Below are positions 1-4,260 of a stretch of DNA of 4,260 nt, piece after piece. The stretch is from IMG/VR virus record IMGVR_UViG_2529293063_000009, one strand, 5' to 3'. The notes below the pieces were generated by a model. It was not told the DNA's origin and did no database searches. It saw nothing but the letters and a program-made list of their open reading frames with translations. The stretch's first letter is position 1; each line of letters starts with the position of its first letter. Both the position numbers and the translations under genes were made by a program. This DNA comes from a virus (taxonomy: Duplodnaviria; Heunggongvirae; Uroviricota; Caudoviricetes).

Positions 1-441
1 CCAGCCACCATTACGCTGGATCTGAACCAGCAGGCGGACTTCCGACGGATTCCTGTCCCCCTTTGAGGTGGTTTCCACCAGTGCCTGCACGCCGAAGGTA
101 AAACGCAGTCGGTCAATGTTTGCCGACGTGATGGTCCGGGTGATCGGCGTGTCGTATTTCACTTCCGTACCCAGCACCGTCTCGGAGCCGGAGGATTCAA
201 ATCCCTCCGGCGGTGTCTGCTCCTGCTCACCGGCCCGGAACACCACCGTGACGCCGGAGATATTGGTATTCCCCTCACTGTCCAGCACCGGCGTACTGTT
301 CAGCAGCACGCTTTTTAATCCATCCACCGGACCTTCAACCGGCCCTTCGCTGATGGCATCGATCACACTCAGCAGCTGCGTGGACTTCAGGTTGTCCTTC
401 GCTTCGCGCGGGGTATGCCCCTTACTGCTGCCTTTACCCAT
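1..441 (-). CDS. J: Tail tip fibre / host-specificity protein J, N-terminal 147 codons only; gene continues beyond the window start
   Basis: Minus-strand ATG at 441-439 opens a frame that I translated by hand as MGKGSSKGHTPREAKDNLKST..., which I recognise as the lambda gpJ N-terminus. It sits about 60 nt downstream of the I stop, as in lambda. Absent from the ORF track because it has no stop inside the window. Confidence 0.88.
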   Translation of the reverse strand, partial: MGKGSSKGHTPREAKDNLKSTQLLSVIDAISEGPVEGPVDGLKSVLLNSTPVLDSEGNTNISGVTVVFRAGEQEQTPPEGFESSGSETVLGTEVKYDTPITRTITSANIDRLRFTFGVQALVETTSKGDRNPSEVRLLVQIQRNGGW

Positions 442-501: not shown

Positions 502-1173
502 TCAGCGACCAATCACCACAACCTGACCACCGTCCCCTTCGTCTGCCGTGCTGATCTCCTGAGAAACCACGCGTGACCCCACGCGCATTTCCCCGTACAG
601 AACAGGCAGAACATTGCCCTGGGCAACCATGTTATCCAGTGAGGAGAAATAGGTGTTCTGCTTACCGTTATCCGTTGTCTGTGTACGGGGAGTTCTGGCT
701 TTCGGTGCCAGCATCTGCGCCACACCACCGAGCACCATACTGGCACCGAGAGAAAACAGGATGCCGGTCATACCACCGGCCCCAATGGCTGCCCCCCATG
801 CTGCAAGGGTGGCTCCGGCGGTAAAGAATGATCCGGCAATGGCGGCAGCCCCCAGGACAATCTGGAATACGCCACCTGGCTTGGCCCCGGCGACTCTGGG
901 AACAATATGAATCACAGCGCCATCAGGCAGAGTCTCATGTAACTGCGCCGTTAACCCGGACGTGCTGACGTCCCGCCCGGCAATCCGTACCTGATACCAG
1001 CCGTCGCTCAGTTTCTGACGAAACGCCTGGAGCTGTGTGGCCAGTGCCCGGATGGCTTCAGCCCCCGTTTTCACACGAAGGTCGATGCGGCGACCAAATC
1101 GTTGTAAATCCCCGTAAAGGCAGATGCGCGCCATGCCCGGTGACGCCAGAGGGAGTGTGTGCGTCGCTGCCAT
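502..1173 (-). CDS. I: Tail tip assembly protein I (223 aa): N-terminal putative ubiquitin-like region, then a Gly/Ala-rich hydrophobic segment
   Basis: ORF track 223 aa MAATHTLPLASPGMARICLYGDLQRFGRR...; length and sequence match my recollection of lambda gpI. Start lies inside the 3' end of K in a different frame, as in lambda. An AGAGG sits 11 nt upstream of the ATG (weak SD). Confidence 0.92.
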   Translation of the reverse strand: MAATHTLPLASPGMARICLYGDLQRFGRRIDLRVKTGAEAIRALATQLQAFRQKLSDGWYQVRIAGRDVSTSGLTAQLHETLPDGAVIHIVPRVAGAKPGGVFQIVLGAAAIAGSFFTAGATLAAWGAAIGAGGMTGILFSLGASMVLGGVAQMLAPKARTPRTQTTDNGKQNTYFSSLDNMVAQGNVLPVLYGEMRVGSRVVSQEISTADEGDGGQVVVIGR

Positions 1174-1814
1174 TTGTCGGTGTACCTCTCTCGTTTGCTC
1201 AGTTGTTCAGGAATATGGTGCAGCAGCTCGCCGTCGCCGCAGTAAATTGCGGCGTGATTCGGCACTGATGAACCAAAACAGCACAGCAGCACATCGCCCG
1301 GCTGTGCCGCTGACAACGGCACCTGATACAGCCCCGTCGCCTCCAGATTATCCAGATAGAGATTCTGGCCGTTACGCCACCAGTCATCCTCACGATAAAA
1401 GTCCGGCATCTCAATCCCCGCCAGATGATAAGCATCCCGGAACAGTGTGTAACAGTCCGTCACACCGTGCTCAAAGCGCCGCCCGGTGAGATGCGGCACA
1501 CAGCGGAACTTATGAATCGTCCCCCGGCAGACCAGCCACCACGGCAAATCACTCTGCACCTGCAGCCGCCGGTCGGCCTCACTCAGCCAGGGCAGACCAC
1601 CGGGGTGGCTGTGGACCAGCGCCACAATCTCACCCTGCATTTCTGCCTGCAGCCAGTCTTCCGGCGACATACGGAAATACGCCTCCGGCTCACCGGAGAT
1701 ATTCACGCAGGGAAAATATCTTTCCCCCTCCGGCGTGCTTACCACGAAGCCGCACGACTCCGCTGGCGCACATCGCCGGGCGTGCGCCAGAATCGCTGAT
1801 TCTGTCTGTGTCAT
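1071..1814 (-). CDS. K: Tail tip assembly protein K, with JAMM/MPN-type metalloprotease motif and NlpC/P60 Cys-His-His peptidase domain; coordinates are the full 247-codon ORF, the classical 199-aa annotation would start at 1670
   Basis: ORF track 247 aa. HSHPGGLPWLSEAD (HxHx7Sx2D JAMM signature) at ORF residues 68-81; NlpC/P60-like Cys121 (DCYTLF), His187 (VPNHAAIY), His199/200. Internal Met49 at 1670 gives a 199-aa product, the lambda gpK length as I recall it. Overlaps I by 103 nt. Confidence 0.88.
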   Translation of the reverse strand: MTQTESAILAHARRCAPAESCGFVVSTPEGERYFPCVNISGEPEAYFRMSPEDWLQAEMQGEIVALVHSHPGGLPWLSEADRRLQVQSDLPWWLVCRGTIHKFRCVPHLTGRRFEHGVTDCYTLFRDAYHLAGIEMPDFYREDDWWRNGQNLYLDNLEATGLYQVPLSAAQPGDVLLCCFGSSVPNHAAIYCGDGELLHHIPEQLSKRERYTDKWQRRTHSLWRHRAWRASAFTGIYNDLVAASTFV

Positions 1815-1819
1815 GGGAT

Positions 1820-2518
1820 TTACTGCGAAAGTTTGTTAATGGAAAGGAAGCCGCCAAAGTTGCCGACGTTATTGCGGAACTTACAACCGCTCAGGCATTT
1901 GCTGCATTTATCCTTCGTGATATCGGACGTTGGCTGGTCATATTCATCCGCGACCGCCGGACCGTGATAACCGCACTCATCGCCGCGATAGGTCCAGGTG
2001 CAGGTGTTGGCCAGCATGATACGTCCCGGAAAAACAGCGCCGTCCGTTTCCGTCGGCGTGGACAGTACAAAGGAGGCACTCACCGCGCTCAGTTCGCTGC
2101 ACTGCTCAATGCGCCAGCGGCTGATCACCTCCTGCTCCGGATCGGCGTAACTGTTTCCGTTGACGAAGTTCACCGCATCCAGAAAACGGGCGTAAACCTT
2201 ACGCCGGACCACCGTTCCGCCGACCAGACTCTGCATATCTTCCGCCATCCCGGTGACCATACCGTACAGGTTAGAAACCGTCAGCGTGGGGCGCGTACTG
2301 GTGCCTTTGCCATTCAGTTCAAAACCGCTCCCCTGAATGGGATACGGCTGATACTGTCGCCCCTGCCAGGTGACCGGCTCACCTTTTTCGTTCTGCTCAT
2401 TACAGAAAAAATAACGTTCTCCACCGACCTCTGTCAGATCGATTTCCCAGAGCACCACGCTGGCCGACTGCTCCGCACGGGTGCATTCATTCAGTGTTTC
2501 CTGCCGGATATCCTGCAT
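1820..2518 (-). CDS. L: Tail tip protein L (232 aa) with C-terminal cysteine cluster
   Basis: ORF track 232 aa MQDIRQETLNECTRAEQSASVVLWEIDL...; length and sequence match lambda gpL as recalled. Start ATG overlaps the M stop (TGATG). Preceded by AGGTGGTG (SD-like) lying in the last codons of M. Confidence 0.93.
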   Translation of the reverse strand: MQDIRQETLNECTRAEQSASVVLWEIDLTEVGGERYFFCNEQNEKGEPVTWQGRQYQPYPIQGSGFELNGKGTSTRPTLTVSNLYGMVTGMAEDMQSLVGGTVVRRKVYARFLDAVNFVNGNSYADPEQEVISRWRIEQCSELSAVSASFVLSTPTETDGAVFPGRIMLANTCTWTYRGDECGYHGPAVADEYDQPTSDITKDKCSKCLSGCKFRNNVGNFGGFLSINKLSQ

Positions 2519-2847
2519 CAGTTCACCACCTGTTCAAACTCTGCGCTGAACTCAACACGCAGCATACTGACCCGCGACGACCATTTTGCGCAGGTCACCT
2601 TTATCTGCCGCCACTCATAAGGCGGCGTCCACAGAAAGGATTTCCAGCCCCCGTGCTCTTCCAGAAACGACTCCAGTACCGTGGCCTCCTCACGGGAGAC
2701 AGAAAGCGTCACGCTGTACGTTTTCAGGTTGGCATTCAGCCCGGCAGGCGCTCGCTGAGAATAGCCATCACCAAAGCGCACCTTTCTTACAGAAGGGACC
2801 GAAGCCACATCCATACCGGGTTTCACTTTCCAGCGGAAGGTCTTCAT
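2518..2847 (-). CDS. M: Tail tip protein M (109 aa)
   Basis: ORF track 109 aa MKTFRWKVKPGMDVASVPSVRKVRFGDGYSQRAPAGLNANLKTYSV...; length and sequence match lambda gpM as recalled. ATGA overlap with the H stop; strong SD just upstream. Confidence 0.93.
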   Translation of the reverse strand: MKTFRWKVKPGMDVASVPSVRKVRFGDGYSQRAPAGLNANLKTYSVTLSVSREEATVLESFLEEHGGWKSFLWTPPYEWRQIKVTCAKWSSRVSMLRVEFSAEFEQVVN

Positions 2848-4260
2848 CGTCCACCTCCGGAGAACAGGCCACCATCACGCATCTGTGTCTGAATTTCATC
2901 ACGGGCACCCTTGCGGGCCATGTCATACACTGCCTTCATCATCTGTGGACCTGGCAGACCATTCGTACCGTCGTTCTGAATCACCACGTGATTGTTCTGA
3001 TTAAAATTAATGCCTTCAGCCCGCCGCATCTGCGCCGGACTTCCGGCACCGCCCACATAACCACCTTCCGCATAGCCCCGCATCAGGCGGTACAGGTTGC
3101 CGACACCAATCCGGCTGGTTGCCTCCTTCGTGAAGACAAACTCACCACGGTGAACAATCCCCGCTGGCTCATATTTGCCGCCGGTTCCCGTAAATCCTCC
3201 GGTTGCAAAATGGAATTTCGCCGCAGCGGCCTGAATGGCTGTACCGCCTGACGCGGATGCGCCGCCACCAACAGCCCCGCCAATGGCGCTGCCGATACTC
3301 CCGACAATCCCCACCATTGCCTGTTTAAGCAGAATTTCTGTCATCATGGACAGCACGGAACGGGTGAAGCTGCGCCAGTTCTGCTCACTGCCGGTCAGCA
3401 TCGCCGCCATATTCTGCGCAATACCATCAAAGGTCTGCGTGGCTGCACTTTTAACCTGCGACATACTGTCCGTGGCGCTCTCTTCCCACTCACTCCAGCC
3501 GGACTTCAGGCCTGCCATCCAGCTCCCGCGAAGCTGGTCTTCAGCCGCCCAGGTCTTTTTCTGCTCTGACATGACGTTATTCAGCGCCAGAGGATTATCG
3601 CCATACTGTTCCTTCAGGCGCTGTTCTGTGGCTTCCCGTTCTGCCTGCCGGTCAGTCAGCCCCCGGCTTTTCGCCTCAATGGCGGCCCGTTTTGCCCGTT
3701 GCTGCTGTGCGAATTTATCCGCCTGCTGCGCCAGCGCATTCAGGCGCTCCTGATACGTGACCTTATCGCCAAGTGCAGCCAGCTGGCGCTTGTACTCCAG
3801 TGTCTCATCTTTATGCGCCAGCAGGGATTTCTCCTGTGCGGACAGCTGGCGACGTTGTGCCGCCTCCTCCAGTACCGCAAACTGACTCTCCGCCTTCCAC
3901 AAATCCCGGCGCTGCTGGCTGATTTTCTCATTCGCTCCGGCATGCTTCTCCAGCGTCCGGAGTTCTGCCTGAAGCGTCAGCAGGGCAGCATGAGCACTGT
4001 CTTCCTGACGATCGCCCGCAGACACCTTCACGCCGGACTGTTTCGGCTTTTTCAGCGTCGCTTCATAATCCTTTTTCGCCGCCGCCATCAGCGTGTTGTA
4101 ATCCGCCTGCAGGATTTTCCCGTCTTTCAGTGCCTTGTTCAGTTCTTCCTGACGGGCGGTATATTTCTCCAGCGGCGTCTGCAGGCGTTCGTAAGCCTTC
4201 TGCGCCTCTTCGGTATATTTCAGCCGTGACGCTTCGGTATCGCTCTGCTGCTGCGCATTT
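2844..4260 (-). CDS. H: Tail tape measure protein H, C-terminal ~472 codons; 5' end lies beyond the window end
   Basis: ORF track gives 414 aa from an internal Met at 4088. I checked the same frame by hand from 4089 to 4260 and found no stop (...QADYNTLMAAAKKDYEATLKK...), so the gene runs off the window. Charged Q/A/R/E/K-rich helical sequence, then the Gly-rich hydrophobic block MVGIVGSIGSAIGGAVGGGASASGG; matches the C-terminal part of lambda gpH as recalled. Confidence 0.9.
   Translation of the reverse strand, partial: NAQQQSDTEASRLKYTEEAQKAYERLQTPLEKYTARQEELNKALKDGKILQADYNTLMAAAKKDYEATLKKPKQSGVKVSAGDRQEDSAHAALLTLQAELRTLEKHAGANEKISQQRRDLWKAESQFAVLEEAAQRRQLSAQEKSLLAHKDETLEYKRQLAALGDKVTYQERLNALAQQADKFAQQQRAKRAAIEAKSRGLTDRQAEREATEQRLKEQYGDNPLALNNVMSEQKKTWAAEDQLRGSWMAGLKSGWSEWEESATDSMSQVKSAATQTFDGIAQNMAAMLTGSEQNWRSFTRSVLSMMTEILLKQAMVGIVGSIGSAIGGAVGGGASASGGTAIQAAAAKFHFATGGFTGTGGKYEPAGIVHRGEFVFTKEATSRIGVGNLYRLMRGYAEGGYVGGAGSPAQMRRAEGINFNQNNHVVIQNDGTNGLPGPQMMKAVYDMARKGARDEIQTQMRDGGLFSGGGR
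2853..2858 (-). promoter_or_regulatory. Shine-Dalgarno GGAGGT for M, embedded in the final Gly codons of H
   Basis: Plus strand 2853-2858 acctcc is GGAGGT on the minus strand, 5 nt upstream of the M ATG at 2847; the same bases encode the ...SGGGR end of H. Confidence 0.6.

Follow-up and report, generated by a model that had tools for sequence, protein, structure and literature searches.

The C-terminal cysteine cluster of tail tip protein L in a lambdoid tail-tip module corresponds to the described [4Fe-4S] site of lambda gpL

The question raised by this locus is whether a group of cysteine residues near the carboxyl terminus of a phage tail tip protein forms a metal site and, if so, which of the residues hold the metal. 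The whole stretch of DNA analysed, which we call the window, consists of 4,260 nucleotides of a virus of the Caudoviricetes (IMG/VR record IMGVR_UViG_2529293063_000009). The product of its gene L possesses eight cysteine residues, and five of them are gathered within the 40 residues from 173 to 212. The original prediction had placed these five at C173, C182, C205, C208 and C212 and had assigned the candidate iron-sulfur site to positions 1883-2002. The placement was exact, and the two limits coincide with the outer edges of the codons for C212 and C173. The cysteine cluster is the already-described [4Fe-4S] site of lambda gpL. That is, the assignment was correct, and the site is not new.

The features of the window are listed in Table 1. 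A lambda-type tail-tip module, H'-M-L-K-I-J', fills the window on the minus strand, and in the ORF list of the window the long frames supported by homology were found on the minus strand only. The siphophage tail-tip order H, M, L, K, I, J is intact, as judged from the ORFs together with the Pfam matches for H, M, L, K and I and from the N-terminus of J. The annotation of the tail-tip genes in lambda records agrees with this order. The identity of the DNA to phage lambda and its relatives was 97.3% over 100% of the 4260 bases, the identity to E. coli chromosomal prophages reached 98.7%, and a match to the window was present in 4464 of 5426 complete E. coli genomes. In view of the identity to lambda and the frequency of the match in E. 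coli, the window is, as judged from its sequence, an ordinary lambdoid tail-tip module.

Table 1. Features of the window, with their positions and the evidence for each.
Feature	Position	Strand	Evidence or remark
Gene J, 5' part (J')	1..441	-	Translation MGKGSSKGHTPREAKDNLK... / MGKGSSKGHTPREAK..., open to window edge; lambda records annotate J where they match
Gene I, tail tip assembly protein I	502..1173	-	Pfam PF06805 Lambda_tail_I, E=3.5e-28
Gene K, JAB/MPN + NlpC/P60 peptidase	1071..1814	-	Pfam PF14464 Prok-JAB and PF00877 NLPC_P60
Gene L, tail tip protein L (baseplate hub protein 1)	1820..2518	-	232 aa + stop; Pfam PF05100
C-terminal iron-sulfur binding domain of L, residues 154-232	1823..2059	-	Limits from PMC10721106; holds the four invariant Cys
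Cys212 codon TGT, ligand 4, context SGCKF	1883-1885	-	Conservation and PMC10721106; near-invariant Arg215 after
Cys208 codon TGC, spare, non-ligand, context SKCLS	1895-1897	-	Cys in 4/71 homologues <60% identity; absent from the PMC10721106 ligand list
Cys205 codon TGC, ligand 3, context DKCSK	1904-1906	-	Conservation and PMC10721106; invariant Asp203 before
Cys182 codon TGC, ligand 2, context DECGY	1973-1975	-	Cys in 71/71 homologues <60% identity; PMC10721106
Cys173 codon TGC, ligand 1, context NTCTW	2000-2002	-	Cys in 71/71 homologues <60% identity; PMC10721106
N-terminal hub domain HDI of L, tail-tube-like fold, residues 1-153	2060..2518	-	Limits from PMC10721106 and PMC11101478; AF2 model
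Gene M, distal tail protein	2518..2847	-	Pfam PF05939 Phage_min_tail, E=6e-40
Gene H, 3' part (H'), tape measure protein	2844..4259	-	Frame open to window edge; Pfam PF09718 Tape_meas_lam_C

Several boundaries in the module were also noted. The M and L frames overlap by 1 base at the stop/start (2518), the H and M frames overlap by 4 bases (2844-2847), and the last 103 bases of K are the first 103 bases of I in another frame (1071-1173, minus strand). The tight coupling seen in these overlaps is typical of lambda tail genes. The K frame starts at the ATG at 1814, 3 bases past the stop of L, and its product has 247 aa, in which the Pfam Prok-JAB match begins at residue 3 and is followed by the NlpC/P60 match. 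In the classical lambda annotation, K has 199 aa. The longer, 247-aa K with the N-terminal JAB/MPN domain seems to be the real product. A 270-aa open frame on the plus strand (1808..2620) lies antisense to the whole of L and is without supporting evidence. We rejected it as a gene because the evidence from homology falls entirely on the minus strand, and it is most likely a non-coding shadow of the L frame.

When L was compared with Tail tip protein L of lambda (PDB 8iyk_L), 231 of 232 residues were identical, and both proteins are 232 aa in length. The chains of lambda gpL are present in 8IYK, 8IYL, 8K35, 8XCG and 9E7M, and the only difference of L from them is at residue 185, which is His here and Ser in lambda. 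The codon of H185 is at 1964-1966 (minus strand), 3 residues after the ligand C182. Position 185 is freely variable in the family; in the clusters with at least 90% identity, which represent close E. coli prophages, His was found in 47, Ser in 13 and Asn in 1. L shares with lambda gpL all five C-terminal cysteines and the H-M-L-K-I-J context. Pfam PF05100 (Phage_tail_L) matched L with 337.6 bits (cut-off 25, E=2.6e-101) over profile positions 1-206 of 206, and this was the sole Pfam match in L. All of the computationally accessible defining features of the gpL family, namely the profile score, the ligand cysteines, the gene context and the two-domain fold, were found in L. For the features seen at the bench, namely metal content, spectroscopy and mutant phenotype, there are published reports on lambda gpL and its homologues. 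On the basis of its sequence, L belongs to the gpL / Phage_tail_L family and is effectively lambda gpL itself. From this near-complete identity, the cluster is predicted to be present in this exact protein.

Substitution of Cys by Ser or Ala in lambda gpL reportedly abolishes its activity. According to Tam et al. 2013 (J Mol Biol 425:2450), as cited in PMC10721106, conserved cysteines coordinate an oxygen-sensitive [4Fe-4S]2+ cluster within gpL's C-terminal domain, and the statement in PMC10276861 that cites Tam 2013 describes the cluster as indispensable both to the assembly of the tail and to biological activity. In the cryo-EM structure of the lambda tail published in 2023, the cluster was modelled into extra density amid Cys173, Cys182, Cys205 and Cys212, and this oxygen-sensitive cofactor lies at the exposed tip surface (PMC10721106). 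The statement in the original prediction that proteins of the gpL family bind Fe-S through C-terminal cysteines is borne out by this literature, in which the cluster is modelled between four cysteines. Its remark that the function is not obvious remains justified, as the authors of the 2023 structure leave the function of the gpL cluster to be characterised (PMC10721106). For its description of the cofactor as redox-active, no demonstration was found in the literature consulted, and current papers favour a structural role.

The C-terminal iron-binding domain of gpL comprises residues 154-232 (PMC10721106), and gpL as a whole is composed of the HDI and 4Fe-4S domains (PMC11101478). The AF2 model of L had a mean pLDDT of 82. 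Residues 21-150 mostly showed pLDDT values above 90 with beta strands, and residues 154-208 showed hardly any regular secondary structure and had lower confidence, the cofactor being absent. The picture given by the model fits a small domain whose fold may depend on a cofactor that the predictor cannot place. The top Foldseek matches of the model were 8iyk_L, T1 9l9p_J, Chi 8vjh_D, JBD30 8rk3_O and RcGTA 6tba, and the search also placed it with T5 7zqp and R4C 8gtc, which is the known spread of hub proteins.

We calculated how unusual the gathering of the cysteines is by itself. At least five cysteines in some stretch of 40 residues occurred in 9.3% of 200,000 shuffles of L's own residues, and with a background Cys frequency of 1.1% the upper bound for the same clustering was about 0.015. 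The clustering alone is only weakly beyond chance. Since it is marginal (p ~0.09), we argue for a functional site from conservation instead.

In order to clarify which cysteines are conserved, L was searched against 1.84 billion cluster representatives, which gave 2374 matches at E<=0.001, and also against a 90%-clustered collection. The homologues were aligned to L with phmmer, and the counts were made on the rows covering residues 170-214. C173, C182, C205 and C212 were each Cys in 71 of 71 homologues with less than 60% identity and in 56 of 56 with less than 45%. The spacing C-x8-C-x22-C-x6-C was kept in 55 of the 71, and the last gap was 6 in 70 of them. The site is real, because four of the five cysteines are invariant across distant homologues. 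The original prediction had proposed an alignment to see which four cysteines are invariant, and had regarded a lack of conservation among L homologues as evidence against the site. These four residues are the answer, and for them conservation was found to be complete below 60% identity. The N-domain cysteines C12, C39 and C140 were unconserved in the same alignment. In distant homologues C39 (2402-2404) is mostly replaced by His (26) and C140 (2099-2101) mostly by Lys (48), and both are outside any conserved Cys site.

A MAFFT alignment of 31 full-length homologues, which are 33-50% identical to L and have a mean column identity of 39%, gave a similar picture. Just eleven of its columns were invariant, and C173, Y177, C182, D203, C205 and C212 are among them; R215 was at least 90% conserved. 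The profile made from this alignment found four solved relatives by sequence, namely lambda gpL, the F2-pyocin BHP, the T1 minor tail protein and the hub protein gp21, and in all four of them the four ligand cysteines align to Cys.

At the DNA level, we compared 80 related loci, all of which are 86-100% identical, so that the codon test spans the close clade only. They gave 73 distinct close CDS from IMG/VR (86-100% protein identity). The four ligands were Cys in 73 of 73, with switching between TGC and TGT at every one of them. Such synonymous switching at kept ligand codons has the look of purifying selection.

Several apparent substitutions of ligands were also seen. Those in close relatives were set aside as untrue losses, as they are mostly frameshifted or fused gene calls in which the flanking sequence switches frame. 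The only full-length exception seen was a Citrobacter farmeri protein (P0101, 232 aa, 72% identical) that has C182R and in which W175 is changed too. It may come from a decaying prophage gene or from a sequencing error. Some gpL relatives, such as that of phage LSH1, are without the cysteines altogether. Since such relatives exist, the hub fold has no strict need for the cluster.

The fifth cysteine behaved differently from the other four. At position 208, the 71 homologues below 60% identity have Cys in 4, Arg in 35, Thr in 13, Ser in 9 and Lys in 5. C208 is thus the spare cysteine, and the earlier view of a four-cysteine site plus one spare agrees with the counts. Closer to L, Cys was found at 208 in 142 of 145 homologues with at least 50% identity, and positions 207, 209, 210 and 213 vary in this clade. 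In 1 of the 73 distinct close CDS, C208 is Tyr (TAC). The residue may have been carried along by shared ancestry, or it may play a minor role specific to the clade. That it has a function in the lambda clade, as a transient or back-up ligand during insertion of the cluster or after oxidative damage to the surface-exposed cluster, or as a disulfide partner that locks the domain after loss of the cluster, is unlikely in our view. If it were so, the tips of the lambda clade would tolerate or sense oxygen differently from those of other gpL-bearing phages.

The site was also compared with known systems. In the F-type pyocin BHP1, PA0638 (PDB 25vf chain 7), the protein resembles L in its two-domain layout, and its C165, C178, C201 and C208 hold a 4Fe-4S cluster (F-pyocin preprint). 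These residues align with C173, C182, C205 and C212 of L. PA0638 differs from L in that it is about 40% identical, has 4 extra residues between ligands 1 and 2, has Arg at the equivalent of C208, and belongs to a tailocin, not a phage. T1 gp36 (9l9p_J) and gp21 (23gd_C) were related to L by the profile search with all four ligand cysteines aligned, and cluster density has been reported for phage T1. Their identity to L, however, is about 22%, they have insertions in the first Cys-Cys loop, and gp21 independently keeps CxxC at the third ligand. In RcGTA gp13 and the hub of roseophage R4C (6TBA, 8GTC), the gene order is analogous to that of L, but their ion-binding domain is interrupted by an oligosaccharide-binding domain, and the two were detected from L by fold only (Foldseek E 3e-3 to 4e-2), not by sequence. 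An equivalent four-Cys metal site has been described for the hubs of RcGTA, R4C, T1 and JBD30.

The [4Fe-4S] sites of ferredoxins and radical-SAM proteins share the all-cysteine cubane ligation, but the motif of L differs from theirs in spacing. Assignment of L to these families was rejected, as the spacing is 8/22/6, neither CxxCxxCxxxCP nor CxxxCxxC is present in L, and no such Pfam domain was found in it. A zinc ribbon or zinc knuckle was also rejected. It needs two conserved CxxC/CxxH pairs, and the sole CxxC of L is C205/C208, of which C208 is unconserved outside the lambda clade.

Taken comprehensively, residues 154-232 are very probably an Fe-S domain, in which four cysteines hold a [4Fe-4S]2+ cluster as a structural staple and C208 is a non-ligand. 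Cys173, Cys182, Cys205 and Cys212 would give one thiolate apiece to the cubane cluster. As these ligands come from three separated loop segments, a cubane cluster would be the natural core of the domain. The cluster would presumably be inserted in the cytoplasm by the Fe-S assembly machinery of the host, and would act as a staple that allows the domain to fold and to dock on gpJ during tip assembly; gpL without the cluster would be non-functional in this assembly. In the finished tip, the small domain would lie on the outer face at the gpL-gpJ interface, pinned by the cluster, and would move as a rigid body at tip opening. Nothing that contradicts the reading as an Fe-S staple was seen in the sequence.

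The published structures offer points of comparison. [quoted passage not shown] On LamB binding, the 4Fe-4S domain rotates off the axis together with HDII, HDIII and HDII-ins1 as an unchanged rigid body (PMC11101478). The authors of the F-pyocin preprint call the Fe-S site a "molecular pin", and other groups read the equivalent sites as stabilising. We infer that the role of the cluster is purely structural. The weak point of a pure staple is that one would hardly expect a virion able to survive in air to use an oxygen-sensitive, exposed cluster for this purpose.

The main rival to the structural staple is a sensing role. That is, the cluster might be a redox or oxygen sensor in addition to a staple, and its oxidation or loss might alter the stability of the tip or its readiness to fire, so that infectivity would be tied to the environment. 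Lambda is routinely handled in air, which counts against such a sensor. The Fe-S domain does move during tip opening (PMC11101478), and the authors of the lambda structure leave the function open (PMC10721106), but the domain moves without internal change, the stabilising interpretation is the one given by other groups for the equivalent sites, and redox-dependent infectivity was not found reported in the literature on these tail-tip sites. We therefore consider a sensor improbable.

The identity of the ligands and of the metal must also be considered. C205-x2-C208 is a classic metal-binding spacing, and the retention of C208 in the close clade among the varying flanks 207, 209 and 210 would agree with a ligand set that includes C208, if only within the lambda clade or during some step of assembly, another of the four then being the spare. 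C208 is, however, omitted from the cryo-EM ligand list (PMC10721106), it is Arg, Thr, Ser or Lys in 66 of the 67 homologues below 50% identity in which the other four are kept, and a natural C208Y exists among close relatives, so that such a set is very unlikely. Slightly less probable still is that, in the assembled virion, just one metal ion such as Zn is bound by the four cysteines. Four-Cys sites can bind Zn, and for the equivalent site the JBD30 authors model just "a putative metal ion"; but the statements of the papers that cite Tam 2013 report [4Fe-4S]2+, density of the size of a cluster has been modelled in lambda, RcGTA, R4C, T1 and the F-pyocin, and C-x8-C-x22-C-x6-C is unlike a paired CxxC knuckle, the sole CxxC being the unconserved C205/C208. 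As to the view that the cysteines are gathered by chance or form disulfides without any cofactor, gpL is made in the reducing cytoplasm, which counts against disulfides. The weak statistics of the clustering under within-protein shuffling (p ~0.09) would allow chance, but the four positions are invariant at an overall identity of 35-50% and cofactor density is present in several solved structures. Conservation, together with the structures in the literature, already refutes this view, and its probability is next to nil.

The [4Fe-4S] site has little weight as a discovery, because biochemical work of 2013 described gpL's Fe-S cluster, and it has been seen in structures of lambda, T1, RcGTA, R4C and the F-pyocin from 2020 to 2026. 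The question that occupies the field is why an oxygen-sensitive [4Fe-4S] cluster is placed on the outer surface of the tail tip, and the window gives no new route to it. The present analysis adds that C208 is a non-ligand whose retention is confined to the enterobacterial lambda clade. It also adds that C-x8-C-x22-C-x6-C, the motif of the ligands, is accompanied by the invariant Y177 and D203 and the near-invariant R215.

Some homologues of unusual length were also observed. In many gpL homologues of 390-650 aa (P0193, P0221, P0236 and others), the PF05100 match is split around L residue 120, and the 170-350 residues inserted there belong to no Pfam family. This insert differs from that of RcGTA and R4C, which sits in the ion-binding domain. 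In four longer proteins, P0208 (2258 aa), P0196 (1170 aa), P0233 (1171 aa) and P0189 (685 aa), a full gpL-like module with the four cysteines is located at the extreme C-terminus, and the N-terminal 460-2030 residues have no Pfam match. These proteins may have arisen by fusion to tail genes lying upstream, or may result from read-through in gene calling.
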